From the IMG/VR virus record IMGVR_UViG_2548876861_000004, positions 1-17,495 of that record: a stretch of 17,495 bases of DNA; one strand, written 5' to 3'. A model generated the notes under the pieces. It had not been told where the DNA came from. It saw nothing but the letters and a program-made list of their open reading frames with translations, and did not search any database. Shown piece after piece: positions 1 through 17,495 of the stretch. The first letter of the stretch is position 1; each line of letters begins with the position of its first letter. This stretch comes from a virus (Duplodnaviria > Heunggongvirae > Uroviricota > Caudoviricetes). The position numbers and the translations under genes are program-made.

Positions 1-644
1 GCATCCCTGGCTGCATTACCGGCTGCACTTTCTGCCGTCTTTCTTGACAATTCAGCATCTGCTGCACTTTGTGATGACTCACTGGCTTTTTGAGCGGCCG
101 CAGAGGCCGAGGACGAGGACGCCTCCTCTGACTGCTTTGCAGCGGCTGCACTTTCTGCCGCCTGCCGGGCTGACTCCGATGCATCCCCTGCTGAAGTGTC
201 AGCATTTGCAGCGCTCTCTTCTGCCTGACTGGCTGATATGCCGGCATTCCTCGCTGATGTCTCCGCCTCTCCGGCATTCTTCTTCGCCTCCTCTGCGTGA
301 CGCGCCGCTTCTTCCACCATCAGTTCAAAACGACGCATTGCCTCCGGCCGGACGTCATCCTCCGACATGGCACCGAGAAAATCATTCAGCGTCCCCGGTT
401 GAGAATCTTCATACACGGTGATGGTCCCGGCATGTGATGGAGGGAATCCCTCCACCAACAGAGTGACGCTGTACTGACCATACTCGACGTCCATGCTGTA
501 ACGCCCTGCCTCATCCGGATTTTCAGAGGCCACCGTGTTCACCACCACCGTGGTGCTGTTACGTCTGGCTTTCAGTTGAATGGTGCAGTTCTGTATTGGT
601 TTTCCTGTGCCGTCTTTCAGCACACCTGAAATCTTTACTGCCAT
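1..644 (-). CDS. stf: Side tail fibre protein Stf, N-terminal part (partial; gene continues beyond window start)
   Basis: Minus-strand ATG at 642-644 opens MAVKISGVLKDGTGKPIQNCTIQLKARRNSTTVVVNTV..., which matches the N-terminus of lambda Stf (orf-401) as I recall it. It is followed by an Ala/Ser/Glu-rich low-complexity shaft, and the frame stays open to position 1. Not in the ORF track because no stop lies in the window. Confidence 0.8.
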   Translation of the reverse strand, partial: MAVKISGVLKDGTGKPIQNCTIQLKARRNSTTVVVNTVASENPDEAGRYSMDVEYGQYSVTLLVEGFPPSHAGTITVYEDSQPGTLNDFLGAMSEDDVRPEAMRRFELMVEEAARHAEEAKKNAGEAETSARNAGISASQAEESAANADTSAGDASESARQAAESAAAAKQSEEASSSSASAAAQKASESSQSAADAELSRKTAESAAGNAARD

Positions 645-653
645 ATTCACCCC

Positions 654-682
654 ACAAAAAAGCCCGCCTGAACCGGCGGGCT
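654..682 (-). terminator. Intrinsic terminator-like hairpin downstream of lom
   Basis: Plus strand reads A-run (656-661), stem AGCCCGCC (661-668), loop TGAACC, stem GGCGGGCT (675-682). On the minus strand this is a GC-rich 8-bp stem followed directly by TTTTTT. Read by eye. Confidence 0.5.
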
Positions 683-708
683 GTCATAACACTGTGTTAC
701 CTGGCTAA

Positions 709-1332
709 TCAGAATTTATAGCCGACACCCACGATGAAGCCGTCAGTGCGCCAGTCGCCACTGCCGGAACCTTCATAAGCAAGGTCAATAACCACCGTCT
801 CTACGGGACTGAACTGAATCCCGGCATTCCAGGCCGGCGACAGATGACGCGCAGTATGACCATCACTGGCGGTGGTGGTCTCCTTCACATACCCCGGTTT
901 CACTTCATCACGTCGGTAATCCTGAACACTGTCAGACCAGCGGGTGTACGCCATCCCGGCCATGCCATAGAGACTGACCCGCTCACTGAGCTGCCAGACA
1001 GGGCCGGCCATCAGACTGACATAACGACCGCGCAGGCTTTCATAATGGAAGGTATTTTCACCCGTCTTCATCGTGTCACTTTTCTTCACCGATGCATAAC
1101 TCAGCGCGACAATGCCGCCCAGGTGATCCGTGAACTCATAACGGTATTTCACATTAATCCCTTTCAGATCGCCGGCCCTGATGCCGGTACCGGAAAGCCC
1201 CGGCGTACCGTCCGGGTGCACCTGTGTGTACCCCACAGAAAATGCACCGTGTCCGCTTTCAGCCTGTGCAGGAAAGGCAATTCCTGCCAGCAGGGTAGTA
1301 AACAATAATATCGTTGCGTATAAATGCCGCAT
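709..1332 (-). CDS. lom: Lom outer-membrane beta-barrel protein (Ail/Lom/PagC family), lysogenic-conversion cargo gene
   Basis: Track ORF 709..1368. I place the start at the internal ATG (1330-1332), which has an AAGAGG Shine-Dalgarno 5-6 nt upstream and gives MRHLYATILLFTTLLAGIAFPAQA, a typical signal peptide. The C-terminus ...YEGSGSGDWRTDGFIVGVGYKF matches lambda Lom. The track's upstream extension starts at a GTG inside the J terminator hairpin. Confidence 0.9.
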   Translation of the reverse strand: MRHLYATILLFTTLLAGIAFPAQAESGHGAFSVGYTQVHPDGTPGLSGTGIRAGDLKGINVKYRYEFTDHLGGIVALSYASVKKSDTMKTGENTFHYESLRGRYVSLMAGPVWQLSERVSLYGMAGMAYTRWSDSVQDYRRDEVKPGYVKETTTASDGHTARHLSPAWNAGIQFSPVETVVIDLAYEGSGSGDWRTDGFIVGVGYKF

Positions 1333-1354
1333 GATTACCTCTTTGTTTTCAGTC

Positions 1355-1381
1355 AATAAAAAAGGCACCTCCTGAGGTGCC
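1355..1381 (-). terminator. Intrinsic terminator-like hairpin downstream of J
   Basis: Plus strand reads AATAAAAAA GGCACCTC CT GAGGTGCC. On the minus strand this is a GC-rich 7-8 bp stem followed by TTTTTTATT, between the J stop (1401) and the lom SD. Confidence 0.55.
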
Positions 1382-1400
1382 CGTCCGGGTTAATAAACCG

Positions 1401-4400
1401 TCAGCTGATACTGATCCCTGCCGTGGATTTTTTCATGACCACAACCAGTAAATCACTGATGTACGTTGTCGGCGTCCAGTTGTTCGCACCGGCCGACGAC
1501 ACATTAAACGTCAGGGTGACATGACCCCGCCCTGCCGGCATATCTATCACCGATGAGAACACCCGGCTGACATCCGTTGCCGGTTCATGGAAAATCTCAA
1601 CCCCGTTCTTCAGCACCTGCAGCTTACAGGTGGAATACCAGTACGACTGCTGATTCGGGCTGTTGAAATTCTGGTGTTTCGTCCCGCGAAACAGCACCGG
1701 GGGAATGATAATCTGCCGGTCGAAGCCCTGGTCATCGTAAACTGTGACGGTTACCGTCCCGCTGGCATAACTGTTATTCCGGGGAAAGGCTTTCCCCACC
1801 GTCTTCACCAGGTCGCCTTCAATCTGGTTTGCAGACAGTTTCCCTCTGATGACACAGTTCTCGTTAATGGTGACATTATTGAGCGTGCCGGTATTCGCGG
1901 TAATTGCTCCGCTGATATCCGCGTTCCTTGCCGTCAGCTTTCCTTCCGGCGTCAGGGAAAATGCTGGGGGATTGCCGGACGAGGTGATGCTCACCGCAAA
2001 CAGTCGTTTCAGGAACACGTCGTTCATGAACAGCTGATTCCCCTGCGCCACAAATAACGGAGTGCTGTTGCCGCTCTCCGGATTTATCATCGCGATACGG
2101 TCAGCCAGCAGCAGTATGTTGCTCAGTGGCTGGCCATCAGTATCCTCAATCCCTGCACCAATCCCGGCCACATAGGGAATGCCGTCTTTCGTTTTTTGAA
2201 CCTTCAGCATGTACAGCGCAGCCAGGTCATCATTTGTGTCCTTCTGCACGCGCTGTATCTGCTGTATGGTGGCGCTCTGGTTCTCCAGTGTTTTACTGAC
2301 CGTCTGTGTGATTTCATTGCGGGTTTCGGTGATGGTGGTCTTCATCTCCGCCATCTCATCTGCAAGCTGGCTGTTATCTATCAGTTCCCACAACCCCTGA
2401 GCCAGATGCAGTTTTCCTATTTTTTCCCGGAAAAATTCCAGATACCCTTCACCATCATTGCTGGGCTGCCCGCTGACTTCCACAAACGCAGATTTCCCCA
2501 CCAGGTTGACGCTGCGCACGTAAAACCAGAAATCCGTCCCCGGCTTAATCCGGCTTCCCTGGACAGTCCACTGACTGCCGCTCCCCAGATAACGGGCAGA
2601 TTTTTCCACCTGTGCCGTGTTCGTGATGCGTTTTTCCGAAAACCAGAACTCAAACTGTACCGTCGGGTCATACACCGCAAGACGCGGGACCGCTGTTATC
2701 TGAAAATAGCCCGGTGTCAGCTCAATCGTGGCGGGTACCGCAGGTGCATTAATCCTGAACGTGGTGGTGGCCGGTTCCCCCTGCTGGCCATAACTGTTAA
2801 TTGCCCTGACTGTCAGGGTGTATTCCCCGAGCGGCAGACCACTGAAACGATGCTCTGTATCCGCAGTGATGGCGGTGGTCACCAGACGGCTGTCCTGACC
2901 GCTTCCACTGGTCAGGCGCAGACTGAAGCGCACGCCCTTCACCACCCGCGGCGTGTCCCATTTCGCCTGTGCCAGATACTGACCGTCAGCCGCGCTCACC
3001 TCCACCGTCAGGTGCTGCACTGCCGGTGGAATAACGCTGTTCAGGGTGCCTGACTGCGGCTCAAAGCTGGCCCCGTTATCCACGATGGCTTCTTTTTCCG
3101 GTACGTGCTGCACCGCCGTGATGGCAAAGGTGCCGTCCGTGTTTTCCCGGATGGAGACACAGCGGAACAGGCGACGACGCAGTGACGGCAGGGAGAGTCC
3201 CCATACACCGTATGTCTCCACACCATCAGGCAGGGTGCTGACCTGTATCCGGTCCGGCGCGGGGTGTGCAGTGATGGCCACGCTCACCGGCTTACCGCTG
3301 CCGTTAATCAGGTTCACCGTGGCGGCACCTGTCTCCGGCAGGGTCACCTCACGGTCCAGTGTCAGGGTGCGGCTGGCGGCATCGATGGACAGGATACGTC
3401 CGCCGGTCATGGTCCCGGCATAGTCGTTATCACAGATTTCAATAATGTCACCGGGTGTGTGACGTAGCCCCTGTGACCCGAGCGTGAAATCCACCGTCTG
3501 CGTTTCCAGCAGTCCGGTCTTTATCACCCACAGCCCGGCACGGTGGGCCTGACCGCGACTGGTGCAGCCGAACGCATCCATCTTCAGCAGGTTGCGCCCG
3601 TAGCGCAGTATGGCTTCCGGGTCTTCCACCAGTTCCGTGGAGGTCTGCCAGCCGTTCTGCGGGTCGGTGTAATTCACCTCCACCGCCGTGTGGCGGTCCT
3701 TCAGGGCGCTGAAGCTGTAGCGAACCCCCACGCCGTTATCATCCACCACCACATCGCAGTTGGTGTACGGCCACACCACATCCGACGGGCGGTCCTGAAC
3801 GAACGTCAGCGTCTGGCCGTTCCATACCGGCATACAGCGCATCGCCGAGCAGAAATCACTGAGAACGTCCCACGCCTTACGCTGTTGTGACAGGTACGCA
3901 TTAAAGGTCATCCGCGGCTCTGTGCCCCCGAAACCATCCGGGACCGTCTGGTCGCAGTACTGCGCAATGGCATACAGCGCCCACTTGTCCACATCCGCCG
4001 CCCCCAGGCGTTTTCCCATGCCGTAGCGCGGGTGAGTCAGCATGTCCCACAGGCACCAGACCGGGTTATTGCTGTATGCCGGTTTCAGGCTGCCGTCCCA
4101 GATGCCGCTGTACGTGCGTTTTTCCGGGTCATAGTTTGACGGCACCTGGATGATGCGACCTCGGATATGGTAGTTCACCGTCATCTGCTGACCGCCAAAC
4201 TGCTCCGCATCCACCTGCAGCCCCACAATCGCCGTGTTCGGGTAGCACTGTTTCACATCGATGATTTCGGTGTATGACGACCAGAGCGTCTTATTCTGCA
4301 GCTGGTCCGAGGTGCTGTCCGCTGTCTCCCGGACCATCCGGATGTTAAAGGGCCGCTCAGGCAGATTATCCAGAATCACCGACGCCAGAAACTGCGAGGT

Positions 4401-4877
4401 GGTCTTGCCGTTAATGGTGACATCCTTTTCCGTCACCCAGTTACCGTTACGCTGCAACTGAATCAGCAGTCGGACAGAAGAGGGATTACGGTCGCCCTTT
4501 GAGGTGGTCTCCAACAGTGACTGCACCCCGAAGGTGACCCGCAGGCGGTCAATGTTCGCGGACGTAATGGTGCGCGTCACCGGCTTTGCTTTCGTCACTT
4601 CCACGCCCAGTGCGGTTTCCGCCCCGGAGGACTCAAAGCCTTCAGGTGGTGTCTGCTCCTGCTCCCCGGCGCGCCAGACCGCTGTCACACCATGTATCAC
4701 AGGATTACCGTCCGTGTCCGTCAGCGGGGTTTTGTTCACCAGGATACTCTGCAGCCCCTTCACCGGACCTTCAATCGGCCCTTCACCAATGGCATCAATC
4801 ACGCTCATCATCTGCGTGGACTTAAGATTGTCCTTTGCCTCAACCGGCGTGTGCGCCTTGCCGCCACCTTTACCCAC
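1401..4877 (-). CDS. J: Tail tip / central tail fibre protein J (host specificity protein)
   Basis: 1158-aa ORF. The N-terminus [22 protein letters not shown]... and the long central region match lambda gpJ (1132 aa) from recalled sequence. The start codon is GTG (plus-strand CAC at 4875-4877), preceded by AGGAGAGGGGGA. The C-terminal ~300 aa diverge from lambda. Confidence 0.95.
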
Positions 4878-4920
4878 TCTGTCCCCCTCTCCTGTCTGAT
4901 GTCTGAATCTGTTTATGCCC

Positions 4921-4952
4921 CAAAAACGACAGGCACCCCGGAGGGTGCCTGT
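4921..4952 (-). terminator. Terminator-like hairpin in the I-J spacer, oriented with the operon
   Basis: Perfect 10-bp stem ACAGGCACCC (4929-4938) / GGGTGCCTGT (4943-4952) with loop CGGA. On the minus strand it is followed, after a 2-nt spacer, by TTTTT then GGGG. It sits about 45 nt upstream of the J start. Confidence 0.4.
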
Positions 4953-5085
4953 GTCATGACGGAATAAAATTTCTGAATTTCTTCACATTTTCTGTACGCC
5001 CCCGTGGCAGATATCATTCCCGGGCGTTACAGTTTTTTCGGGCCAATAAAAACAAAACTCCCTGTGGTTAATCTTCATTTTCTGT

Positions 5086-5118
5086 TCCCGCAGCCTCCAT
5101 ACACTGCGGGATTTTTTT
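5086..5118 (+). terminator. Terminator-like hairpin with T7 run, plus-strand orientation (convergent with gene I)
   Basis: Stem CCCGCAG (5087-5093) / CTGCGGG (5104-5110) with a 10-nt loop, then A followed by TTTTTTT (5112-5118) on the plus strand. It lies immediately 3' of the I stop codon (5124-5126). On the minus strand the run reads as A7 upstream of the stem, so it is not a minus-strand terminator. Confidence 0.4.
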
Positions 5119-5123
5119 ATGCT

Positions 5124-5804
5124 TTACCCCTGCCGCCCGATAACCACCACCTTCCCGCCACCACCTTCATCACGGGTGCTGATGTCCTGGGAGATTCGCC
5201 GGGAGCCAACCAGCATTTCACCGTAAGGCACCGGCATCGGGTTCCCCTGGGCAATCATGTTGTCCAGTGACGAAAAATACGTGTTCTGTTTACCGTTATC
5301 CGTACTTTTGTACTCCGGCGTCTTTGCCTTCGGGGCCAGCATCTGAGCCACACCGCCCAGTATCATGCTGGCACCCAGTGAAAACAGCATCGTGGTGGCA
5401 GAAAAACCACCGGCTGCCAGGGCTGAACCCCATAACGCCATCGAGCCTCCGGCCGTGAAGAAAGAGCCCACGATGGCTGCCGCCCCCAGCACAATCTGCA
5501 GTCCGCCTTTCCCTGCACCGGCCAGTCGCGGCACAATATGGATGACCGTTCCCTCACCCAGAGGTTCGTGAAGACGGGCGTACACCGCCTCCGGTGCCGT
5601 GTCCTCACCGCGAATACGTATCTGGTACCAGCCTTCGTTCATCTGACGGCGGAATCCCGGCATCTGCATCGACAGGGCACGGATGGCTTCCGCTGCCGTG
5701 TTCACATACAGGCTGAGGCGGCGGCCAAATCGTTGCAAATCCCCGTGAAGGCAGATGCGTGCCAGTGGCGGTGACGCCAGACAGAATGCGTTCGTCGTTG
5801 CCAT
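5124..5804 (-). CDS. I: Tail assembly protein I
   Basis: 226-aa ORF, ATG start at 5802-5804 with GGAGAGG SD. MATTNAFCLASPPLARICLHGDLQRFGRR... matches lambda gpI. The Gly/Ala-rich C-terminal half is hydrophobic. The 5' 103 nt overlap the 3' end of K, as in lambda. Confidence 0.9.
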   Translation of the reverse strand: MATTNAFCLASPPLARICLHGDLQRFGRRLSLYVNTAAEAIRALSMQMPGFRRQMNEGWYQIRIRGEDTAPEAVYARLHEPLGEGTVIHIVPRLAGAGKGGLQIVLGAAAIVGSFFTAGGSMALWGSALAAGGFSATTMLFSLGASMILGGVAQMLAPKAKTPEYKSTDNGKQNTYFSSLDNMIAQGNPMPVPYGEMLVGSRRISQDISTRDEGGGGKVVVIGRQG

Positions 5805-6445
5805 TTTTCGGAATACCTCTCCCGTTTACTCAGTTGTTCAGGCAGATGGTGAAGCAGTTCACCGTTGCCGCAGTAAATGGCGGCATGATTGGCCACCGAT
5901 GCGCCAAAGCAGCACAGCAGGATATCGCCCGCCTGTGCAGAGGACAGGGGCACCCGGTAAAAGCCGGTGACCGCCATATTGTCCAGGTAAAGGTTCTGAC
6001 CGTTGCGCCACCAGTCATCCTCACGCTCAAAACCCGGCATATCAATTCCCGCCAGATGGTAGGCATCCCGGAACAGCGTGTAACAGTCCGTCACCCCGTG
6101 CTCAAAGCGCCGTCCCGTCAGGTGCGGCACGCAGCGGAATTTGTGAATGTCACCCCGGCAGACCAGCCACCAGGGCAGTGCGCTTTTTATCTGCAGCCGC
6201 CGGTCAGCCTCGCTCAGCCAAGGCAGACCACCGGGATGACTGTGGACCAGTGCCACAATCTCCCCCTGCATCTCTGCCCGCAGCCAGTCTTCCGGTGCAA
6301 TACGAAAATACGCCTCCGGCTCTGCAGAGATATTCACACAAGGGATATACCGCTCCCCCTCCGGCGTTCTCACCACGAAGCCGCACGACTCCGCAGGCAC
6401 ACACCGCCGGGCATGCGCCAGAATCGCTGATTCTGTCTGTGTCAT
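5702..6445 (-). CDS. K: Tail assembly protein K (JAMM/MPN metallopeptidase plus NlpC/P60-like domain)
   Basis: 247-aa ORF starting MTQTESAILAHARR, as in lambda K. It carries a perfect JAMM motif, HSHPGGLPWLSEAD (HxHx7Sx2D). ATG at 6443-6445, 5 nt after the L stop. Confidence 0.9.
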   Translation of the reverse strand: MTQTESAILAHARRCVPAESCGFVVRTPEGERYIPCVNISAEPEAYFRIAPEDWLRAEMQGEIVALVHSHPGGLPWLSEADRRLQIKSALPWWLVCRGDIHKFRCVPHLTGRRFEHGVTDCYTLFRDAYHLAGIDMPGFEREDDWWRNGQNLYLDNMAVTGFYRVPLSSAQAGDILLCCFGASVANHAAIYCGNGELLHHLPEQLSKRERYSEKWQRRTHSVWRHRHWHASAFTGICNDLAAASACM

Positions 6446-6450
6446 TGGAT

Positions 6451-7149
6451 TTACTGCGAAAGTTTGTTAATGGAAAGGAAACCGCCAAAATTAGCCACCA
6501 TGCCGCGCATCTCACACCCGCGCATGCACTTGCTGCATCTGTCCTTACGGATATCGGTGGTGGGTTTATCGAACTCATCCGCCACCGCAGGACCGTTATA
6601 CCCGCATTCATCTCCCCGGTAATCCCACATACAGGTGTTCGCCAGCATGATGCGACCGGGAAACAGCGCTCCGTCCGTCTCCGTCGGTGTTGCCAGCACA
6701 AACGAGGCTGTCATGGCCGTCAGCTCTGACATCTGCTCCACCACCCAGCGGTCGCTCAGCTCCTGCTCCGGGTCCGCTTCCGGATTGCCCGCCACAAAAT
6801 TCACCGCATCCAGAAAACGGGCATACACCCGGCGGCGGACCACCGTGGCCCCCACCAGGCTCTGCAGGTCCTCCGCCATTCCGGTGACCAGACCGAACAG
6901 ATTGGACACCGTCAGTGACGGGCGGGCACTGCTGCCCTTCCCGTTCATCTCAAAACCGCTGCCGTCAATCGGGTATGCCTGATATTGCCGCCCCTGCCAG
7001 GTAACCGCCTCCCCTTTTTCATTCAGCTCATTGCAGAAAAAATACCGCTCACCACCCTGTACCGTCAGGTCGATTTCCCAGAGTACCACCCGCGGTGACT
7101 GCTCTGATTTAACCGACTCGTTCAGACTTTCTTCGTGAATATCCTGCAT
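6451..7149 (-). CDS. L: Minor tail protein L
   Basis: 232 aa, the same length as lambda gpL. The Cys-rich C-terminal motif (CSKCMRGCEMRGMVANFGGFLSINKLSQ) matches lambda gpL. The start ATG overlaps the M stop (TGATG). Confidence 0.92.
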   Translation of the reverse strand: MQDIHEESLNESVKSEQSPRVVLWEIDLTVQGGERYFFCNELNEKGEAVTWQGRQYQAYPIDGSGFEMNGKGSSARPSLTVSNLFGLVTGMAEDLQSLVGATVVRRRVYARFLDAVNFVAGNPEADPEQELSDRWVVEQMSELTAMTASFVLATPTETDGALFPGRIMLANTCMWDYRGDECGYNGPAVADEFDKPTTDIRKDRCSKCMRGCEMRGMVANFGGFLSINKLSQ

Positions 7150-7478
7150 CAGTTCACCACCTGCTTAAACTCCGCGCTGAATTCAACCCGCAGCATGCGA
7201 ACCCGTGATGACCAGGCGGCACAGGTCACCTTTATCTGCCGCCAGGCATAAGGCGGTGTCCACAGAAACGCCTTCCAGCCACCGTGCTCTGCCAGGAATG
7301 CCTCCAGATGTCGGGCCTCCTCCCGGGTCACGGAAAGCGTCACACGGTATGTTTTCAGGTCAGCATTCAGCCCCGCCGCCATACGCTGCGAATACCCGTC
7401 ACCAAAACGCACTTCACGCACCGATGGCTGCGAGTTCACCTCCATATCCGGCTTCACTTTCCAGCGAAATGTTTTCAT
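7149..7478 (-). CDS. M: Minor tail protein M
   Basis: 109 aa, the same length as lambda gpM. ATG at 7476-7478 overlaps the H stop (ATGA); GGAGG SD upstream. Confidence 0.92.
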   Translation of the reverse strand: MKTFRWKVKPDMEVNSQPSVREVRFGDGYSQRMAAGLNADLKTYRVTLSVTREEARHLEAFLAEHGGWKAFLWTPPYAWRQIKVTCAAWSSRVRMLRVEFSAEFKQVVN

Positions 7479-10054
7479 CGCCTGCCTCCGGAAAATACGC
7501 CGCCATCACGCATCTGCGCCTGAATCTCATCCTGCGCCCCCTTGCGGGCCATGTCATACACCGCCTTCATCAGCTGCGGCCCCGCCCGTCCGTTGGTGCC
7601 GTCGTTCTGAATCACCACGTGATTGTTCTGATTAAAATTAATGCCTTCCGTCCGCCGCATCTGCGCCGGACTTCCGGCACCGCCCACATAACCACCTTCC
7701 GCATAGCCCCGCATCAGGCGGTACAGGTTGCCGACGCCAATCCGGCTGGTTGCCTCCTTCGTGAAGACAAACTCCCCGCGATGAACAATCCCCGCAGGTT
7801 CATATTTACCCCCCGTCCCCGTAAATCCCCCGGTCGCGAAATGGAAGTTCGCCGCCGCAGCCTGAATGGCCGTCCCCGTGGAGGCAGACGCACCACCACC
7901 GAAAGCACCGCCAATGGCGCTGCCGATACTCCCGACTATCCCCACCATCGCCTGCTTCAGAAAAATCTCTGTCAGCATGGAGAGCACAGAACGGGTGAAA
8001 CCACGCCAGTTCTGTTCGCTGCCGGTCAGCATCGCTGCCATATTCTGTGCAATACCGTCAAAGGTCTGCGTGGCCACGCTTTTAACCTGCGAAAAACTGT
8101 CCGTCGCACTTTCCGCCCACTCGCCCCAGCCGGACTTCAGACCGGCCATCCAGCTTCCACGAAGCTGCTCCTCCGCAGACCAGGTGTTCTTCAGTGCAGA
8201 TGTGGCCTTCGCCAGCGCATCCGGATTATCACCGTACACGTCACGAAGGCGCTGCTCTTCCGACTCCCGCTGCGCCTGACGGTCGGTGAGGCCCCGCGCC
8301 TGGGCACTGATTGCCGCCTGCTTCGCGCTCTGCTGCTGCTCAAACCGCGCAGCCTGCTGTGCCAGCTCATTCAGCCGTTTCTGGTGTTCAACTTTGTCTC
8401 CCAGCTCAGCCAGCTGGCGTTTGTACTCCAGCGTCTCTTTCTCATGGGTCAGCAGGGATTTTTCCTGCTCAGATAACTGCCGTTTCGTGGCTGCCTCTTT
8501 CAGGACCGCATACTGATTTTCCGCTTTCCATAAATCGCGACGCTGCTGGCTGATTTTCTCATTCGCACCGCTGAGTTTTTCCAGCGTCCGGAGCTCGGTT
8601 TCAAGCGCCAGCAGGGCAGCATGCGCCTGGTCTTCCTGACGCTCACCGGCTGACACTTTGACTCCTGACGACTTCGGCTTTTTCAGCGTCGATTCATAAT
8701 CCTTTTTCGCCGCCGCCATCAGCGTGTTGTAATCCGCCTGCAGGATTTTCCCGTCTTTCAGGGCCTTATTCAGTTCTTCCTGACGGGCGGTATATTTCTC
8801 CAGCGGCGTCAGCAGACGCTCATACGCCTTCTGCGCCTCTCCGGTATACTTCAGCTGTGATGCGTCCCGTTCGGCCCGGTCCCTGGCGGCCAGTTCACCG
8901 GCTTTTTCCATATCCGACTGCAGCGTGGCCGCTGCCAGCCCCAGACGGGCATTTTCCCGGTCATCCCATGCACCCTGAAGGTTCGCACGAAAAGAGGCGG
9001 TTTTTCCCCGGCGCTGGCTCCGGCTCTGGTACCACTGCCATTTTTTATCCGCCTCATCAAATGCCTTCTGTGCACTGGCGAGCATATCCGCTGAGGACTC
9101 AGGACGACCGATATCCAGAATGGCATCCCACATCGATTTGAATGCCTTCCCTGTTTTATCCGCCCAGGTCTCCAGTGTCCCCATGTTTTCTTTCAGGCGA
9201 CGGGTCTGCTCATCAAAGCCTTTCGTGGCGATATCGTTCGCCGCCTGTAAGGCCCCGGCCTCATCACCGGAACGCTGCAGCTGTGCAACATACGCAATCT
9301 GCTCTGCCGTCACGTTACGGAACTGGCGCGCCATCGCCATCAGTCCCGACGTCGGGTCAGTGGTCAGCTTCCCGAAGGCTTCAGCGACTTTATCCACCTC
9401 CACACCGGATGCAGACGCAAAACGCGCGACACTCTGGTTGATGGCATCAAACTGTTCACCACCACGCACACCGGCATTCACCAGGGCTGCCAGTGACTCT
9501 CTCGCCTGGTTAAACGTCAGCCCTGCTGCCTGCCCGGCTCTTGAGAGAGTCAGCATACGATCGGCAGTCAGTCCGGACTGATTACCGGAAAGAACCAGGG
9601 TTTTATTAAACGCTGAAAGCGTGGAATCCCCCTGGTACCAGGCGTACGCCAGCGCACCTGTCGCCACCGCCAGCGAGGTGACCCCGACCATCGGCAGGGT
9701 GATCGCACCGGCAAGTCCCCTGAACATGGGGATCATCCCGCCGAAGGAGTCCTTCACCTGACCGCCCTGTTGCAGCAGGATCAGCCAGGGATTCTGACCA
9801 CCGGCAAGCTGCGTGGCGATATCCGTAAACTGTGCGGGCAGGGTTCGCATGGCCGCTTTATACTGCCCGACGGAAATCCCGGCTTTTTGTGCAGCCAGCG
9901 CCTGACGACTCAGGTTCTGCTCAACAACACCGGCGGTTTTTCTGGCGTCAGTCTCCAGTCCGGAAAAATGACGCCTTACCCGGCTCATCTGCTCATCGAA
10001 ACGGACCGCATCCAGACTCAGGTCAATAACAAGATCACCAACCGGCTGGGACAT
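7475..10054 (-). CDS. H: Tail tape measure protein H
   Basis: 859 aa. MSQPVGDLVIDLSLDAVRFDEQ... and the Gly-rich C-terminal segment match lambda gpH (853 aa). ATG at 10052-10054 with GGAGGTG SD; overlaps the end of the T frame by 20 nt. Confidence 0.95.
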   Translation of the reverse strand: MSQPVGDLVIDLSLDAVRFDEQMSRVRRHFSGLETDARKTAGVVEQNLSRQALAAQKAGISVGQYKAAMRTLPAQFTDIATQLAGGQNPWLILLQQGGQVKDSFGGMIPMFRGLAGAITLPMVGVTSLAVATGALAYAWYQGDSTLSAFNKTLVLSGNQSGLTADRMLTLSRAGQAAGLTFNQARESLAALVNAGVRGGEQFDAINQSVARFASASGVEVDKVAEAFGKLTTDPTSGLMAMARQFRNVTAEQIAYVAQLQRSGDEAGALQAANDIATKGFDEQTRRLKENMGTLETWADKTGKAFKSMWDAILDIGRPESSADMLASAQKAFDEADKKWQWYQSRSQRRGKTASFRANLQGAWDDRENARLGLAAATLQSDMEKAGELAARDRAERDASQLKYTGEAQKAYERLLTPLEKYTARQEELNKALKDGKILQADYNTLMAAAKKDYESTLKKPKSSGVKVSAGERQEDQAHAALLALETELRTLEKLSGANEKISQQRRDLWKAENQYAVLKEAATKRQLSEQEKSLLTHEKETLEYKRQLAELGDKVEHQKRLNELAQQAARFEQQQSAKQAAISAQARGLTDRQAQRESEEQRLRDVYGDNPDALAKATSALKNTWSAEEQLRGSWMAGLKSGWGEWAESATDSFSQVKSVATQTFDGIAQNMAAMLTGSEQNWRGFTRSVLSMLTEIFLKQAMVGIVGSIGSAIGGAFGGGASASTGTAIQAAAANFHFATGGFTGTGGKYEPAGIVHRGEFVFTKEATSRIGVGNLYRLMRGYAEGGYVGGAGSPAQMRRTEGINFNQNNHVVIQNDGTNGRAGPQLMKAVYDMARKGAQDEIQAQMRDGGVFSGGRR

Positions 10055-10906
10055 ATCTCACACCTCCGGAAATCCCCGCTGAAGCCATCATTAATGCGAC
10101 ATCATCCTCGCTGACATCCGCCACATCCGCAGACGATAAAATCTCACGCCCTCCGTCCCCACCAAACCGGACGCCTCCGGCAAGTCCTGCCGCTTTCTGC
10201 ATCAGCATTTTTTCCTCATCCGGCATCTCCGTCTGCGCTTCCTCACGCCGGGGGGCAAGCAGACTGAAATCAGAGGGATGCATATCCGGATCGCAAAAAA
10301 ACAGGCTGAGTACGGCGTACGTCAGCCCGGAAAAATGCATATCCAGTTGGGTATCGAGAAAATAATGCGTACGGTAAAAATGTCGCCAGTCGGCATATTC
10401 GGTGGATGTCATCCCGGCAAGCATGGCGCGCCAGTCAGGCCTCCCCATCTCACGCGCCAGTCTGAGGGCAAAATTCAGCTCGCCGTCGAAGACTTTCCCG
10501 CAGAAAAATCATCATCAGTCAGCGCGTTATTTTTCGCCACTTCGGTGCTGTCAGTATCCGCATGAACAGCCCCGCTCATCCCGGACAGACGCAACACCAC
10601 ATCTTCCGCCCGGGCAATGGCATCCGCAGGCCAGGTGGTGAGCACCTCCTGTTCGATCTGCATCACAGCCTCATTCATTGACGGTGATGCCGTTTTCTGC
10701 GGATGGTTATGCCACAGGGACATCGCCACCAGAAACGCGCCGGTTCTGACGAGATCTTCCACGCTTACCTGCAGGTTGCCGCTGGATTCTGCCTGTTCTG
10801 CACGCCGTTTCAGGAGGGCAAGATGCTCAATACGCTGCAGCGCAGACAATTCGGAAAGCGTGACGGACACACCGTTATATTCAAATTGTTCTGTTTTCAG
10901 AAACAT
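10035..10906 (-). CDS. G-T: Tail assembly chaperone G-T fusion, made by a programmed -1 ribosomal frameshift
   Basis: The G frame (10475..10906) and the T frame (stop at 10035-10037) overlap. I translated across the junction by hand: slipping -1 at GGGAAAG gives ...GKVFDGELNFALRLAREMGRPDWRAML..., which runs into the track ORF 10035..10448. Confidence 0.85.
10475..10906 (-). CDS. G: Tail assembly chaperone G
   Basis: 143 aa. MFLKTEQFEYNGVSVTLSELSALQRIEHLAL... matches lambda gpG (140 aa). ATG at 10904-10906 with GGAGG SD. Confidence 0.92.
   Translation of the reverse strand: MFLKTEQFEYNGVSVTLSELSALQRIEHLALLKRRAEQAESSGNLQVSVEDLVRTGAFLVAMSLWHNHPQKTASPSMNEAVMQIEQEVLTTWPADAIARAEDVVLRLSGMSGAVHADTDSTEVAKNNALTDDDFSAGKSSTAS
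10493..10499 (-). promoter_or_regulatory. Slippery heptamer G GGA AAG for the G-T -1 frameshift
   Basis: Plus-strand CTTTCCC at 10493-10499 is GGGAAAG on the minus strand, in register G GGA AAG, six codons before the G stop. This is the same heptamer used by lambda. Confidence 0.8.
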
Positions 10907-10919
10907 GTATTACCTCCGT

Positions 10920-11672
10920 TTACCCTGCAGCGCCCGCTTCAGTAACGGTGACTTCAGCCACTGCGGCGAACTGACCATTTCCGCTCACCACAGGGATCTG
11001 CACCTTACCTGTCGCCACGCCGTTTACCGTAATTGTCATATCTTTCACACTAATGGTGGCTTTCGACGGATCGGCGGAAACCGCTCTGAACGTCTTGTCG
11101 GTTGCACTTTCCGGCTCAAAAGAAACCGTCAGGGTGGTTGTTTTCCCTTTTGCCACCGTACCGGATGTCGGCGTCACCTTAATCGCAGTGACCGGCGTAA
11201 TTTTGCTGCGTTCTTCCGCTACAGAAGGTTTGCCCACGTTGGTCACTTTCACCGTGCGGGTGATCACTTCTTTCGCCGTCACGGCCTTACCGATACTGCT
11301 GACCCAGCCACGAAACACATCCACCGTGCCGTTCGGAAAACGGATTTTATAGGCCCGCACATCCCCGCTTTCAAACCAGCCTATAAGCCCTTTCTGACCT
11401 TCTTCTCCCGGTTTCCAGGCCAGCGTAAAACTGGTATCTCCTGCAGACTTCTGCCCCTGCCCGGTCGCGGTCCAGTCCGCGTCTTCATCATCCAGGTAGT
11501 TATCATCGTAGGGTTCTGCCGTCATCTCGCCCGGCGTCAGATCCTTCACCTTAGCCAGTCGCTGCCAGTCATCGTCTGACAACGGGTTTGCATAGGCGTC
11601 ACCCTGACCGTTATAAACCCACAGGGTGGTACCGGCACCTTTTACCGGCTCAAGGGGATTTGGTGTTGACAT
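10920..11672 (-). CDS. V: Major tail tube protein V with C-terminal Ig-like domain
   Basis: 250 aa. ...[10 protein letters not shown]...[15 protein letters not shown]...[36 protein letters not shown] matches lambda gpV; the C-terminal ~90 aa resemble its Ig-like (Big_2) domain. ATG at 11670-11672. Confidence 0.93.
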
Positions 11673-11679
11673 ATCGTCC

Positions 11680-12075
11680 TCACATCTCGTATGTAATGGA
11701 ATAAGTCAGATCCGCAGAACTCCATAACGCCATATCGTCATCACGACGATACTCATAGCCCTGCGTAACCATCGTGGTAATCAGGTCTGCCAGTGCCGGG
11801 ATCGCAGTCATCGCCGGATAAATCCGGCTTTCCATCCACGAATCCAGCTCCGAATCCGGTACCTGTGCTGGTAAAAACACCTCAATATGCAGTGTGGCCC
11901 GCCAGGTATCTGCATCCAGCTCTTCACCGGTATACTCTGCATCCGTCAGATAAACCGCGACCGCGGGAAAATCCTCTTCGTCAAAAACAACGGGGCGACC
12001 ATCAAACAGCGTCGCCCCGTGTTCATGCAGCTCCAGTGCATCCAGCACTGCAGCACGGATATCAGTATGTTTCAT
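11680..12075 (-). CDS. U: Tail terminator protein U
   Basis: 131 aa, the same length as lambda gpU. ATG overlaps the Z stop (ATGA). Confidence 0.9.
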
Positions 12076-12605
12076 CGTTTTATCGCAATCCTCAGTTGTT
12101 GTTTCAGCGCGTATGCCAGTTCTCCGGGCAGACGTTCACGCCGGATACGGTCAACATTCTCATCAAACGCCTGTTTCAGTGGGGCCGCCATCGGGATTTT
12201 CACCACATCAATGGGGTAACGGTTTTTCCCGACCACACGCTGCATGACATGCCAGCGACCATTTTTTAATCGCTGAATAAATGCCCGCTGATAACGATGC
12301 TGACCGGCTTTGAGTATGCTGTCCGGACGACGCCCCGGCATCCTGATCCCCAGCTTAATCACCGGGAGATCACCGCGGTTAACGATAATTCTGGCATTCG
12401 GATTTCTGACCGTGGCCCGTTTCAGCCTGGACCGTTCCTTAACCAGTTTCCGTCTCACCCTGGTTTCCCGGGCAACCTGTGATGAAGACTGATTAATCGC
12501 CGTTGTGGCCACGCGGTTAATGGTCATTGCAGAAGCCGCCGGAATGGCGTTTTTACGAACCCGGCTCAGATTATCAATCGCCTGCTCAAGCCCTTTTATC
12601 GCCAT
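12072..12605 (-). CDS. Z: Tail completion protein Z
   Basis: 177 aa. MAIKGLEQAIDNLSR...AFIQRLKNGRWHVMQRVVGKNRYPIDVVKIPMA matches lambda gpZ. ATG at 12603-12605. Confidence 0.9.
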   Translation of the reverse strand: MAIKGLEQAIDNLSRVRKNAIPAASAMTINRVATTAINQSSSQVARETRVRRKLVKERSRLKRATVRNPNARIIVNRGDLPVIKLGIRMPGRRPDSILKAGQHRYQRAFIQRLKNGRWHVMQRVVGKNRYPIDVVKIPMAAPLKQAFDENVDRIRRERLPGELAYALKQQLRIAIKR

Positions 12606-12620
12606 AATTTCACCCTGCGT

Positions 12621-12974
12621 TTATCGTCGCCGGTTAACGGCGGGTGGTTGCCCACGGTTGAGCCAGAGATAACAGCTGCCCCCGTCATCCGGAGAAACAC
12701 GATCCACCCAGAACGTCTCACCATTAATGGTCAGCGTGTCACCACGCCGCACAGCACGAACCGTATCCGTCCGCACAAATAATGACGGGCTGCTTCCTTC
12801 AATACGGACCCCGCTACCGGCAAATCCCAGCGACTCCGGATCGTCAAAAACCCCCTGAACTTCTCCGCCACACTGTGCCCCCGAGGTGAACTGTGCACAG
12901 AGCCCCATCACTTCAACAATCGTACTGTCCACCCCGGCAAGGGCAGCATCAAAGGCATTCTGAAAATCACGCAT
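12621..12974 (-). CDS. FII: Head-tail joining protein FII
   Basis: Track ORF 12621..13010. I place the start at the internal ATG 12972-12974, giving 117 aa (the lambda gpFII length) that open MRDFQNAFDAALAG... and end ...GDTLTINGETFWVDRVSPDDGGSCYLWLNRGQPPAVNRRR. This ATG overlaps the FI stop (ATGCGTGA). Confidence 0.85.
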   Translation of the reverse strand: MRDFQNAFDAALAGVDSTIVEVMGLCAQFTSGAQCGGEVQGVFDDPESLGFAGSGVRIEGSSPSLFVRTDTVRAVRRGDTLTINGETFWVDRVSPDDGGSCYLWLNRGQPPAVNRRR

Positions 12975-13341
12975 AAACAGCCATTCCGCCATCAACGTGT
13001 GTTTTTGCATCTGAGGACATAATCAGAATCACCCGACCAACATCCGCAATCTCAACGGATTCCCCTGTTTCACCATCAATGCCACAGAGATGGAGGCAGG
13101 TCAGAACTCTGATGCGCGTTAACGCACCGGATGTATCCTCACGAACATCATGAGCCGCGGTTTCCCGCTCCCGGATCACCGTATCCCCAACCTGAACATC
13201 CTCGCCGGATGACTGTATTTCCTCTTCCCATTCCGCCACCCGCTGCGCTATCTCTGCGGCACTCCCGGATATATCCGGCTCACGCCCCAGAATCAGGGCC
13301 AGTTCATCAAGCCGTTTCAGATTTTGCTCTTTCGTTGCCAT
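12967..13341 (-). CDS. FI: DNA-packaging / head assembly protein FI (divergent)
   Basis: Track ORF 12967..13389 starts at a GTG 3 nt after the E stop. I place the start at ATG 13339-13341 (MATKEQNLKRLDELALILG...), which has a G-rich SD-like run (CAGGGGGCTGAT) upstream and aligns with the lambda FI N-terminus. 124 aa, more diverged than neighbouring genes. Confidence 0.75.
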   Translation of the reverse strand: MATKEQNLKRLDELALILGREPDISGSAAEIAQRVAEWEEEIQSSGEDVQVGDTVIRERETAAHDVREDTSGALTRIRVLTCLHLCGIDGETGESVEIADVGRVILIMSSDAKTHVDGGMAVYA

Positions 13342-13355
13342 ATCAGCCCCCTGTG

Positions 13356-13384
13356 AAAAAAGACACGGGGGCATTTCGCCCCCG
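13356..13384 (-). promoter_or_regulatory. GC hairpin plus T6 run between E and FI (possible attenuator)
   Basis: Plus-strand stem CGGGGGC (13366-13372) / GCCCCCG (13378-13384) with loop ATTTC. On the minus strand a T6 run (13356-13361) follows after a 4-nt spacer, just 5' of the FI SD. The spacer makes terminator function uncertain. Confidence 0.3.
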
Positions 13385-13392
13385 CTCACGGA

Positions 13393-14421
13393 TTATTTCA
13401 CCTGTACCACCACAAACTCATCCGGGTCCGGCAACACCATCAGCGGCGCGGACTGCGTCATGGTAAATTCACGGGCGGGATCCCCCACCGTCAGCCAGTG
13501 TTTCGGATAACGGGAAGAGGCCACCACACCTTCGGACAACGCCTGCGCATCCTGAATGGCACCGTAACAACGGATCCCATCTGCAGCAGTATTCCCCAGA
13601 ACCAGCATGCCCTCCGGCAGATAACGTTTTTCGATACCGTCTTCTGCTATATAAGACGTTTTCGCCACCACAATGGCCAGATCGCCGTAATACCCCTTGA
13701 AGGACACCACTGCGCCCAGATCTTTCACTGCCGTTTCGAGTTGAGAATTTGAACCGCGACGGGTATCCAGTTTTTCGCGGAACAGCTTAAAACCATTCAG
13801 AAGACGCCAGACGGTACCGTCCATAATGGCAATATTCACAAGACCGCTGGCCTGGTCGCAGTAGAGGTCAAGATCATGTGTAGGATCGAACGTGTCACGA
13901 TCCTGTTTTGACCACTCCTTACCACTACCCTGAGTGATGTTATTCTTCGTCGACCTGCCAAAATCGACCTCAATTTTCTCGAACTGGTCTCCTTCCATCG
14001 TATATTTGCCATACAACACAGCATTTACCGCCTGTATTTCTTCCACCTGGACAATCGCGTGCTCTTCCTGTTTGAGGTTATCGGTAATGATACGCAGACG
14101 GCGGTAAGCCGGATCGTTCAGTTGAGCCGGATCTTCACCAGGAAGGCGCTCAACCGCCTGCTGGTAATTAAATTCGTGTTTCGGCTTGACGTAGCCCGGA
14201 CGTAACACGCGGGTTTCACCACCACGATGACGCAGCACTTTTCCTTCAACAACCGGGGAGACATAGGCCGCCACCGGCGTTTTTCCGGTAATTTTGTCCA
14301 GCATCACCTCTTCGGTATGGAAATTCACCGTACGGCGGAAAAACAGCTCCAGAAACAGCGCACGAAATTTCACTTTTTGTTCGGTATAACCGAGTAACTG
14401 GCGGGTCGTAAACAATCCCAT
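13393..14421 (-). CDS. E: Major capsid protein E
   Basis: 342 aa (lambda gpE is 341). ...PGYVKPKHE...NNITQ...LDTRRGSNS.LETAVKDLG...TTGDPAREFTM.QSAPLM matches lambda gpE. ATG at 14419-14421. Confidence 0.95.
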   Translation of the reverse strand: MGLFTTRQLLGYTEQKVKFRALFLELFFRRTVNFHTEEVMLDKITGKTPVAAYVSPVVEGKVLRHRGGETRVLRPGYVKPKHEFNYQQAVERLPGEDPAQLNDPAYRRLRIITDNLKQEEHAIVQVEEIQAVNAVLYGKYTMEGDQFEKIEVDFGRSTKNNITQGSGKEWSKQDRDTFDPTHDLDLYCDQASGLVNIAIMDGTVWRLLNGFKLFREKLDTRRGSNSQLETAVKDLGAVVSFKGYYGDLAIVVAKTSYIAEDGIEKRYLPEGMLVLGNTAADGIRCYGAIQDAQALSEGVVASSRYPKHWLTVGDPAREFTMTQSAPLMVLPDPDEFVVVQVK

Positions 14422-14450
14422 AAATCAGTTCCTTTCATTCAGAAATCAGT

Positions 14451-14470
14451 CAGGCCACCGCGGTGGCCTG
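14451..14470. repeat. Perfect 20-bp palindrome in the D-E intergenic region
   Basis: CAGGCCACCGCGGTGGCCTG is its own reverse complement and contains a SacII site. It lies between the D stop (14479-14481) and the E SD. No T-run follows on either strand. Confidence 0.6.
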
Positions 14471-14478
14471 ATAACGTG

Positions 14479-14826
14479 TTACGGCAGCGCCGCGTGACTC
14501 AGGGCACTGCCGGCAAAGGCATTTGCCTTTTTGTGTTCATCCACACTTTCAGGCCAGCGGATTGCCTCCGTCGCAAAGGTCCCCGACTTGTAATAGGTCA
14601 GTACCGTCTCTGTGCCTTCAAGCGGCAGTACCAGTATGCCAACTGCACTACCGGCTTTCTGTCCGTCCCAGACCACCAGTTTCCCGCTGGCTTCATCCAG
14701 CATCAGGGGCGTCAGTGCCGGTGTTGCCGAGGAAATCCCGCTGCTGCCTGTGGCGGTATGAGCCGGATCATTACCGGCAAAAATACGTACTTCCGCACGC
14801 TGTTCAGTGATGGTTTTCGTTACCAT
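14479..14826 (-). CDS. D: Capsid decoration protein D
   Basis: 115 aa. ...DPAHTAT...TPLMLD...GILV...YYKSGTF...AFAG matches lambda gpD (110 aa). ATG at 14824-14826 with AGGAGG SD. Confidence 0.92.
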   Translation of the reverse strand: MVTKTITEQRAEVRIFAGNDPAHTATGSSGISSATPALTPLMLDEASGKLVVWDGQKAGSAVGILVLPLEGTETVLTYYKSGTFATEAIRWPESVDEHKKANAFAGSALSHAALP

Positions 14827-14862
14827 ATTGTAAAAACCTCCTGTTGATGATCAGCACTGACT

Positions 14863-15678
14863 TCATGGCATGGCCATGAGCATTTTCACGTCCGCATCAC
14901 CGTCTGCTGACGTCTGTGGCACGCCACCCTGTACCGCTGCCGGTGAATGGTTCGCCATGATGCGTTCAAACAGGGCGGTTGTGGATGCAGAGACCGGTTC
15001 TGCCTTACCTGATCCCGCAGCCAGCACAGCCCGGGCGCTCTCCACAGTCATTCCCGGGCAGGCAGCCAGTTGTTCAGCCTGCGCCTCAGCCCCTTTTGCC
15101 TCATCCAGTGCCATGATCTGATCACGGAGTGAGGGTCCGGCATCCGCCTGCGGTGAAGCAGCCAGGATCGGGCGGGCTTTTTCCACCGTCATCTCCGGCA
15201 TCGCCGCCAGCGTTGCCGCCAGTTGTTCACGACCGTTCGCTTCTTCACACGCCATAATGCGATCGGCTTCACTCTGCGTGGATGCCACCGGCTGCTGCGG
15301 TGCCGCCGCGGCCAGAATCGCCCGGGCCTGTGCAACGCTCATGCCCTGTTGTCCTGCCAGCATCGTGGCAAGCTGTTCACGTCCTTTCGCTTCCTGGCAT
15401 GTCAGGATCCCCATCACTCGCTGGTTCTCCTGCGCGGCGGCTTCCGTTGCAGTTAATTGCGGCATAGTGCCTCCTCTGACATTACTGTTCAGCGCCGTGG
15501 CCATCACACTGATGGCATCCGACGCATTGACTAATTCATCCGCCAGCCCGGCCTCAATGCCGGACTGACCTTCAAAAACGGCGGCCTCTGTTCCCGTGAC
15601 GGCATCAACAGACAGACCGGTAAACATCGCCACTTTTTCGGCAAACATCCGGCGCGCCGCATCAATGCGCTGCTGCAT
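14863..15678 (-). CDS. Nu3: Putative Nu3-like scaffold protein from an in-frame internal start within C
   Basis: By analogy to lambda, where Nu3 starts in frame at C residue 239. The nearest in-frame ATGs here are residue 231 (15676-15678, AGAGG about 11 nt upstream) and residue 241 (15646-15648). The exact start is not determinable from sequence. Confidence 0.35.
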   Translation of the reverse strand: MQQRIDAARRMFAEKVAMFTGLSVDAVTGTEAAVFEGQSGIEAGLADELVNASDAISVMATALNSNVRGGTMPQLTATEAAAQENQRVMGILTCQEAKGREQLATMLAGQQGMSVAQARAILAAAAPQQPVASTQSEADRIMACEEANGREQLAATLAAMPEMTVEKARPILAASPQADAGPSLRDQIMALDEAKGAEAQAEQLAACPGMTVESARAVLAAGSGKAEPVSASTTALFERIMANHSPAAVQGGVPQTSADGDADVKMLMAMP

Positions 15679-16357
15679 GTCCTGGCGAACCTCTGCCGGT
15701 AAGGCTTCAAACTGATTGCCATCCACCTTGTGCGCCCCTGAGTAAATCAGCGTGATATCCACACCGGCCTGCGCCAGATGACCGGCATAGCTGACATGGC
15801 TCATCATCACGCCAATGGAGCCGATACGGGATGTCTGGGTAACCAGCCGTCGGGAGCAGGCCGACGCCAGCAGCATGGCTGCAGAACAGGCCGTGTCATT
15901 GCACAGTGCCCAGACCGGCTTCTGCTGACGGAGGCGGTAAATCATGTCAGCGCAGTCAAACGCGCCGGCGGCCTGCCCGCCCGGACTGTCAATGTCCAGC
16001 AGTATGCCCCGCACCTGGCTATCTGCCATTGCCTGCTGAAGACAGGCGACAATGCCGTCATAGCCAGTCATTCCGGAAAATGGCCGCATCCCCCCCAGCC
16101 GGTGCACCAGCGTGCCGGTCACCGGCAGTACCGCAATACCGTTCACCACCCGGTAAACACGGGCCGGTCGTTTACCTCCGGCCATGTACTCGTCCGTTTC
16201 AGCCAGCATTCCGGGAGCATCAAGCTGTACCTGCTGTTGTGGTACCGAAAGACTTGCTGCCCCCATCTCGCGCCCGAGCGCGCAAAAGAAAACCCGCGCA
16301 TAGGCGGGCTCCAGAAGCAGCGGTTCATTGAATGCTGCGGCAATAATGTGTGAAAGA

Positions 16358-16368: not shown

Positions 16369-17495
<1,127 letters not shown>

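Follow-up and report, generated by a model that had tools for sequence, protein, structure and literature searches.

Gene J of a lambda-like Escherichia coli prophage, contained in a 17,495-bp stretch of viral DNA (IMG/VR record IMGVR_UViG_2548876861_000004, positions 1 to 17,495; this whole stretch is hereafter called the window), was found to encode an intact tip attachment protein, also called the central tail fibre protein, that has the domain order of its lambda counterpart and ends in a receptor-binding domain (RBD) that is not of the lambda type. Judged by its sequence, this RBD is an allele of the group that contains the prophage-derived module A8 and the phage vB_EcoS_phi330 (phi330), and we consider it probable that the protein binds the porin OmpC rather than LamB. 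Throughout, J residues are numbered along the 1158-aa product of the gene, which lies on the minus strand of the window.

A receptor-binding domain of the A8/phi330 type

We compared J with lambda J (NC_001416) by BLASTP and MAFFT. Identity is 65% over the full length, and it differs greatly from segment to segment. The hub and the immunoglobulin-like (Ig) and fibronectin type III (FNIII) domains (residues 1–825) are 72% identical to lambda J, with 48 to 86% in individual 50-aa segments. In the alpha-helical shaft (residues 826–897), identity is 23% and there is a net insertion of 28 residues, whereas the beta-prism fibre (residues 898–1034) is 66% identical, with 78% at residues 951–1000. In the RBD (residues 1035–1158), identity drops again to 46%, with 10 gap columns and three indels (−4, +5 and −1 aa relative to lambda) that lie in or next to the distal loops described below. 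Over the last 159 aa it is 49%, again with 10 gap columns.

The original prediction, made from the sequence of the window alone, had held that the C-terminal end of J is distinct from that of lambda, and had named more than 90% identity over the last 250 aa as the level that would speak against this; the identity found there is 56%, and the claim stands. The same prediction had described the upstream part as tracking lambda closely, with similarity dropping from about residue 860 onward. Neither description fits the profile above, in which the upstream part is homologous rather than close, and a collapse in the shaft is followed by a recovery in the beta-prism and a second drop in the RBD. With three indels, the RBD also lacks the near-identity and the equal lengths of loops L1 to L4 that characterize a LamB-binding RBD of the lambda type, in which these four distal loops insert into LamB. 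The divergence is not due to chance, because the long form of J is common to BP-4795, phi330, ev203 and Stx2a_JNE071577, and the C-terminal 900 nt recur as a close match (at least 95% nucleotide identity) in 331 complete E. coli genome records, with a median of 2 and up to 10 matching places per genome.

The last 159 aa of J (from NNVTINENC) are 100% identical to those of 26 phage records, including BP-4795, the Shiga toxin (Stx) 2-converting phage 1717 and long-tailed Stx1a/Stx2a phages. When aligned with the natural part of A8 gpJ, 125 of the 159 residues are identical (78.6%) and no gaps are required. For the C-terminal module, we also obtained identities of 89% to ev203 and PhiR57_1 (0 gap columns), 77% to phi330 (76–77%, 0 gaps), 68% to the Stx2a_JNE071577 type, which is the probable 1A2 type (9 gap columns), and 49% to phage 434 (11 gap columns). 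Gap-free homology and equal loop lengths place the RBD with the A8/phi330 type; the OmpC-binding RBD of the 434 type, defined by close homology and three contact loops, is too distant at these values. A different host species, which the original prediction had offered beside a different receptor, was rejected as a reading, since, among the homologues listed for the C-terminal 199 aa, all 120 with a source name are Escherichia (E. coli and one E. marmotae; a few rows are unnamed). In addition, the full-length protein exactly matches the E. coli RefSeq entry WP_024214867.1, 'host specificity protein J [Escherichia coli]', which belongs to a 90%-identity cluster of 10,581 members.

The integrity of the gene (1401–4877, minus strand) is evident from the open reading frame (ORF) list, the translation, Pfam, the lambda J alignment and this exact database match. 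Pfam recognizes, in lambda order and all far over the gathering score, FNIII-A_GpJ (PF24801), Phage-tail_3 (PF13550), Ig_J (PF24421), Ig_J_second (PF24489), Phage_Tail_Tip (PF09327; residues 871–998) and Ig_GpJ_C (PF12421; residues 1035–1158, E = 2.4e-38). J thus has the makeup of a lambda-type tip attachment protein, namely ordered hub domains, two FNIII/Ig domains, a tail-tip fibre and a C-terminal Ig-like RBD. Its place in the tail operon is likewise that of lambda J, downstream of ...H-M-L-K-I and ahead of lom and stf. Positions 1401–2300, the subject of the original prediction, correspond to residues 860–1158 plus the stop codon. The longest J ORF starts with GTG at 4875–4877, and its product, MGKGGGK, aligns with the MGKGSSK of lambda from residue 1; the annotated J of BP-4795 is of equal length (1158 aa). 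Two antisense ORFs in the region, 1587–2057 and 2196–3053 (both plus strand), gave no Pfam match and were taken as by-products of the coding strand rather than as genes.

Fold and distal loops

The RBD proper (residues ~1031–1158; 1404–1787, minus strand) is an Ig-like beta-sandwich, assigned from PF12421, AlphaFold2 (AF2), Foldseek and the identities given above. It follows the central straight fibre, a beta-prism (residues 898–~1030; 1788–2186, minus strand) that was delimited by alignments, Pfam and sequence matches in the PDB (lambda gpJ 8xck/8xcj and A8 9wca), and that is 66% identical to lambda and 91% to phi330. In an AF2 model of residues 960–1158 based on a 23-sequence alignment, the predicted local distance difference test score (pLDDT) was 80–96 over the RBD, and Foldseek analysis of the modelled RBD returned A8 9wca/9wcb at the top (79% identity), followed by lambda 8xck/8xcj (52%).

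Four loops would lie at the distal, receptor-facing end of the RBD, as suggested by the order and up-down parity of the strands in the model. Loop L1 (residues ~1031–1039) was assigned from the strand order and the AF2 model. The beta-hairpin L2 (residues 1067–1082; 1632–1679, minus strand), which has its tip at P1074-N1075 and is 5 aa longer than in lambda, was assigned by DSSP of the AF2 model and by residue mapping to phi330. It is the counterpart of the phi330 hairpin E953–S962, which reads ENFNSNNQQS in both phi330 and A8; J shares eight of these 10 residues and has an Asn-to-Pro change at the tip (P1074). AlphaFold3 predicts that this hairpin of phi330 enters the OmpC barrel (PMC12502783). 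The beta-hairpin L3 (residues ~1097–1107, tip D1102-V1103; 1557–1589, minus strand; AF2 model and alignment) is the stretch most divergent from A8/phi330 (HEPATDVSR versus NQSTTDAQG, about 2/7 identical). Loop L4 (residues 1131–1142; 1452–1487, minus strand; AF2 model and phi330 mapping) holds ANNWTP, identical at 6/6 positions to phi330 A1015–P1020, a hairpin with predicted contact to the OmpC rim (PMC12502783). The 34 of 159 residues that differ from A8 cluster at 1045–1047, 1085–1105 (including L3) and 1117–1120.

A longer alpha-helical shaft

In lambda, residues 809–861 form the alpha-helical shaft, a bundle of three helices placed between the FNIII domains and the beta-prism; when LamB is bound, this shaft flips, and part of it turns to beta-sheet (PMC11101478). 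The shaft of J is longer (residues ~809–897; 2187–2453, minus strand), as delimited by the lambda alignment, composition, AF2 and the lambda domain definitions. The original prediction had pointed to an extra segment relative to lambda. Such a segment does exist, being a net insertion of 28 aa relative to lambda and 434 (residues ~835–865; 2286–2375, minus strand; BLASTP and MAFFT), the exact placement of which is ambiguous because the flanks are merely 23% identical. However, it lies mostly outside the interval 1401–2300 to which it had been assigned, and the peptide quoted for it corresponds to residues 829–899 (nt 2181–2393).

Residues 829–898 contain neither Pro nor Gly, and their hydrophobic residues are spaced 3–4 apart. 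Heptad scoring of the shaft gave a weak register preference (0.5–0.75 hydrophobic at a/d positions); given this weak register, we did not adopt a canonical coiled coil and describe the shaft as helical with a 3–4 spacing. A single-sequence AF2 model of the last 359 aa, which served to assess the helical character of the shaft alone and not for the fold search, had a mean pLDDT of 38.5 and showed helices at residues 810–830 and 838–888, of which only the long one reached 63–75. The extra segment lengthens the helical shaft and lies outside the RBD; judged from helix geometry, the fibre would reach about 4 nm further if the longer shaft is a continuous helix. The long form occurs in the four relatives named above, while lambda and 434 have the short form, and at least four different RBD alleles are found on the long shaft.

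Mosaic structure of gene J

Next, we calculated sliding-window nucleotide identities to phi330 and BP-4795, which revealed a recombination junction at residues ~972–992 (1904–1963). The DNA is ~100% identical to phi330 upstream of the junction, whereas downstream it is 60–77% identical to phi330 and ~100% to BP-4795. At residues ~513–640, identity is 98–100% to phi330 and 92–98% to BP-4795, and at residues ~792–970 it is ~100% and 83–98%, respectively; the drop to 60–77% against phi330 begins at ~975, and the ~100% match with BP-4795 at ~990. The junction falls in a conserved NADISG...NNVTINENC stretch, beside the fusion point at lambda aa 964 of the A8 and 1A2 chimeras. From these identity profiles, the RBD (from about residue 975–990 to the end) appears to be an exchangeable cassette that was joined by recombination in the conserved stretch. 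In a megablast comparison of the whole window with phages, the similarity of some relatives ends at nt 1781 or 2223, suggesting additional natural breakpoints at the borders of the RBD and of the shaft.

A different pattern was observed further upstream. At residues 653–712, the window resembles BP-4795 (92–97%) and not phi330 (57–65%) at the DNA level, and at residues 752–792 it differs from both (80–85%), with BP-4795 equal to phi330 there. Since these patches (residues 653–792; window ~2504–2920) lie in the Ig/FNIII domains, recombination tracts are not confined to the RBD.

The probable receptor

A8 and 1A2 are C-termini of J proteins from natural E. coli prophages that were fused to lambda gpJ at residue 964 (PMC11338833). 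Both deliver DNA into lamB-deleted cells (PMC11338833; also 10.1101/2025.02.28.640725). In delivery assays on ompC-deleted cells supplied with OmpC from a plasmid, A8, 1A2 or both were efficient for 21 of 23 OmpC variants, and the two accepted different variants (PMC11338833). The PDB entries for A8 are titled 'Closed state of A8 gpJ 713 central tail fiber' (9wca) and 'Open state of A8 gpJ 713 central tail fiber with OmpC G17 from E. coli EDL933' (9wcb), and the latter holds three OmpC chains. The phage phi330, the RBD of which is almost identical to that of A8, does not plate on the Keio delta-ompC strain and is rescued by Plac-ompC (PMC12502783). The J protein of 434 also confers OmpC use (PMC11101478).

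The allele of the window is therefore nested among OmpC binders, given that A8/phi330 (77–79%), the 1A2-like allele (68%) and 434 J (49%) are all OmpC users. The LamB-binding RBD of lambda is an outgroup, as distant as that of 434 (49%). In the lambda-LamB structure paper, the loops of OmpC were reported to clash with the open-state RBD of lambda (PMC11101478); therefore, distinct loop sets seem to be needed for each porin. Taken as evidence from homology, these relationships make it probable that J binds OmpC rather than LamB. The non-lambda receptor specificity of the original prediction is supported to this extent, and its host-species alternative is not.

Several points weigh against OmpC as the receptor. 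We found no receptor experiment on the exact allele of the window in the literature. Lambda J can gain the use of OmpF by a handful of point mutations, and 79% identity is therefore no guarantee of the same receptor or of the same OmpC variant range. The 34 differences from A8 are concentrated in hairpin L3 (1097–1105), and the Asn-to-Pro change stands at the tip of L2. Moreover, the distal or proximal placement of the loops comes from strand parity rather than from coordinates, and the contact residues that we used are AlphaFold3 predictions for phi330, not the solved 9wcb interface. The divergent L3 and the Pro at the L2 tip underlie the idea that J keeps the same fold and docking but uses another trimeric porin (OmpF, PhoE, OmpN or a LamB-like porin), or a narrow subset of OmpC. 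The clustering of the substitutions at 1085–1105 and 1117–1120 is in its favour, as are P1074 at the tip of the predicted barrel-entering hairpin and the fact that A8 and 1A2 already differ in the OmpC variants that they accept. However, all characterized relatives at 49% to 79% identity, lambda excepted, use OmpC, the loop lengths equal those of A8/phi330, and the L4 rim motif ANNWTP is identical; we therefore regard this idea as unlikely. It is very improbable that J is a diverged lambda-type protein that still binds LamB: PF12421 and the overall fold are indeed common to both, but the RBD is only 46–49% identical to that of lambda, has its three indels in or next to the distal loops, and is much closer to the solved OmpC binders, and the clashes of OmpC loops noted above (PMC11101478) imply separate loop sets.

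Two further explanations concern the protein as a whole. In the C-terminal third of J, nothing departs from lambda as visibly as the extra 28-residue segment, and the original prediction had implied a link between this segment and receptor choice. However, the segment belongs to the alpha-helical shaft and precedes the RBD by ~170 residues, and the A8 chimera uses OmpC despite the short shaft of lambda. Given this location, the A8 chimera and the variety of RBD alleles that accompany the one long shaft, we rejected the segment as the receptor determinant, and we see next to no chance that it sets specificity by itself. Instead of a receptor determinant, the longer shaft is a trait of the fibre in this prophage lineage, because it occurs with at least four RBD alleles and because the short-shafted A8 chimera uses OmpC. 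Moreover, it is present in phi330, an infectious OmpC-dependent phage, so that the two features are separable. Many lambdoid prophages in E. coli are defective, and several occur per genome (median 2 matching places), so that J might be part of a decaying cryptic remnant that has no current adsorption function. This, too, is hardly credible, as the J ORF is of full length with every domain present, the whole head-tail module of the window consists of intact lambda-like ORFs, and the RBD is 100% identical to those of deposited phage records, including BP-4795 and Stx2 phage 1717.

The widespread allele of the BP-4795, phage 1717 and Stx1a/Stx2a type may not be functionally equivalent to A8. L3 and the Pro at the L2 tip could confer a distinct OmpC variant range or, less likely, the use of another porin, and, together with the longer shaft, make this a central fibre of the enterohaemorrhagic E. 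coli (EHEC) lineage with a host range of its own. We hold this to be rather unlikely. If it is true, then the host range of this fibre could shape which strains are convertible by long-tailed Stx phages.

Proposed mechanism and significance

Based on the relatives with known structures, we propose the following sequence of events. In this intact lambda-like prophage of E. coli, 1401–2453 (minus strand) encodes the distal half of the central tail fibre, which consists of a trimeric shaft 28 residues longer than that of lambda, the beta-prism and the C-terminal Ig-like RBD. By homology, the three RBDs would dock on the OmpC trimer, with the distal hairpins inserting into and around the barrels. 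If lambda-LamB (PMC11101478) and the open and closed structures of A8 are a guide, binding would cause the bases of the RBDs to spread and the prism to compact and twist. The shaft would then flip, the FNIII strings would be released, the tail tip would open and the DNA would be ejected, as in lambda-LamB and A8-OmpC. The downstream side tail fibre (window 1–644) would make a separate, probably reversible first contact, as in Ur-lambda.

The protein, its RBD allele, the family and the receptor complex of a near relative are all public already, and nothing here is new in that respect. The fundamental value is little, since this is a textbook case of lambdoid prophages exchanging the receptor-binding cassette of J as a module. 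The practical value is modest and comes from the presence of the allele in many long-tailed Shiga-toxin phages and in the 331 E. coli genome records. If confirmed, the receptor and the OmpC variant range would aid in predicting which strains can be lysogenized, and the allele would be an extra natural module for the toolbox of A8/1A2 lambda chimeras.

Neighbouring genes and related prophages

The window is the minus-strand head-tail module of the prophage, and its ORFs are lambda-like and intact: portal (cut), protease/scaffold, decoration, major capsid, FI/FII-like, Z, U, V, G/T, H, M, L, K, I, J, lom and the start of stf. It represents an entire contig that is cut in the portal gene at one end and in the stf gene at the other, probably because co-resident lambdoid prophages share repeated sequence at which the assembly broke. 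As in lambda, the next gene downstream of J is lom (709–1332, minus strand; Pfam Ail_Lom, E = 1.2e-51), which encodes an Ail/Lom outer-membrane beta-barrel and for which a homologue of equal length is annotated in a 97.5%-identical prophage. It is followed by the 5' part of a side-tail-fibre (stf-like) gene (1–644, minus strand; PHROG tail fibre families, E = 3e-122) that is cut by the contig end. The counterpart of this gene in the 97.5%-identical relative is annotated 'prophage tail fiber N-terminal domain-containing protein', and the gene is a second host-range determinant of the same tail.

A consensus scan detected a terminator-like hairpin with a T-run directly after the J stop codon (1363–1382, minus strand), and a second one, a GC hairpin with a T-run, right after the lom stop codon (661–682, minus strand), so that the pair brackets lom. 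Two such hairpins were found, compared with 0.8 expected in shuffles, and a simple scan showed no sigma-70-like promoter; lom may be a transcriptionally insulated unit. In addition, GGGAAAG, the slippery heptamer of lambda G/T, occurs at 10493–10499 (minus strand), a few codons ahead of the stop codon of a G-like ORF (10475–10906), which is followed by a T-like ORF (10035–10448). This placement is consistent with a conserved -1 frameshift producing G-T, the argument being the position and not the count of the heptamer (4 in the window versus 2.65 expected by chance).

Residue F950 of J (window 2028–2030, in GNQLFMNDV) is the counterpart of lambda J F924. The F924S substitution allows lambda to escape the abortive-infection nuclease HepS of Gifsy-1, and Gifsy prophages have Ile at this position (PMC13043305). 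Since J keeps the Phe, it is predicted from sequence to be of the HepS-triggering type. The PDB chain 'J tail tip' (9oik_C) matches J residues ~923–959. In the 97.5%-identical relative, a prophage of E. coli O145:H28, the tail-fibre genes are followed by nleB2, an nleC fragment, nleH and nleF (L007 1726–4883). The prophage type is therefore an effector-carrying lambdoid of EHEC and enteropathogenic E. coli (EPEC); the window ends before this region.

Comparison with known systems

The RBDs of 1A2 gpJ (Stx2a_JNE071577 type) and of 434 J belong to the same Ig-like family as that of J and have OmpC as their receptor, but the length of their barrel-entering hairpin differs from that in J. The equation of 1A2 with the JNE071577 type rests on fragmentary tblastn matches to a noisy optical character recognition copy of supplementary DNA and is not exact. 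A literature search for the source paper of the PhiR/mEp lambdoid phages, which perhaps lists receptors, gave no useful result. Likewise, we found no receptor experiment in the literature for BP-4795, phage 1717 or the long-tailed Stx1a/Stx2a phages. All of these carry an RBD module with 100% protein identity to that of J, and over the last 900 nt of J, BP-4795 and the best-matching Stx1a/Stx2a phage records are 96–98% identical to the window. BP-4795 differs at J residues ~752–830 and 892–912 by 12–20% at the DNA level.

Lambda gpJ, a LamB binder (PDB 8xck/8xcj, 8iyk), has the same domain order and fold as J; it differs in its shorter shaft, in the RBD with three indels and in its receptor. 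By analogy, the receptor-triggered opening of lambda gpJ probably applies to J too. The Stx2a siphophage phi330, which is OmpC-dependent (PMC12502783), is closer: its shaft is 97% identical to that of J, its RBD is of the same type, and lom and stf lie downstream. It differs in having another RBD allele past the junction at residue ~975 and in the mosaic patches of the Ig/FNIII region (~653–712). The best PDB match to J, both by sequence and by structure, is A8 gpJ, which has the same loop lengths, the identical ANNWTP rim loop and an identical C-terminal strand and tail. The 34 substitutions between the two are concentrated in the L3 hairpin and its neighbouring strands, with Pro in J against Asn in A8 at the L2 tip, and A8 gpJ as studied carries the short shaft of lambda, whereas the shaft of J is 28 aa longer.

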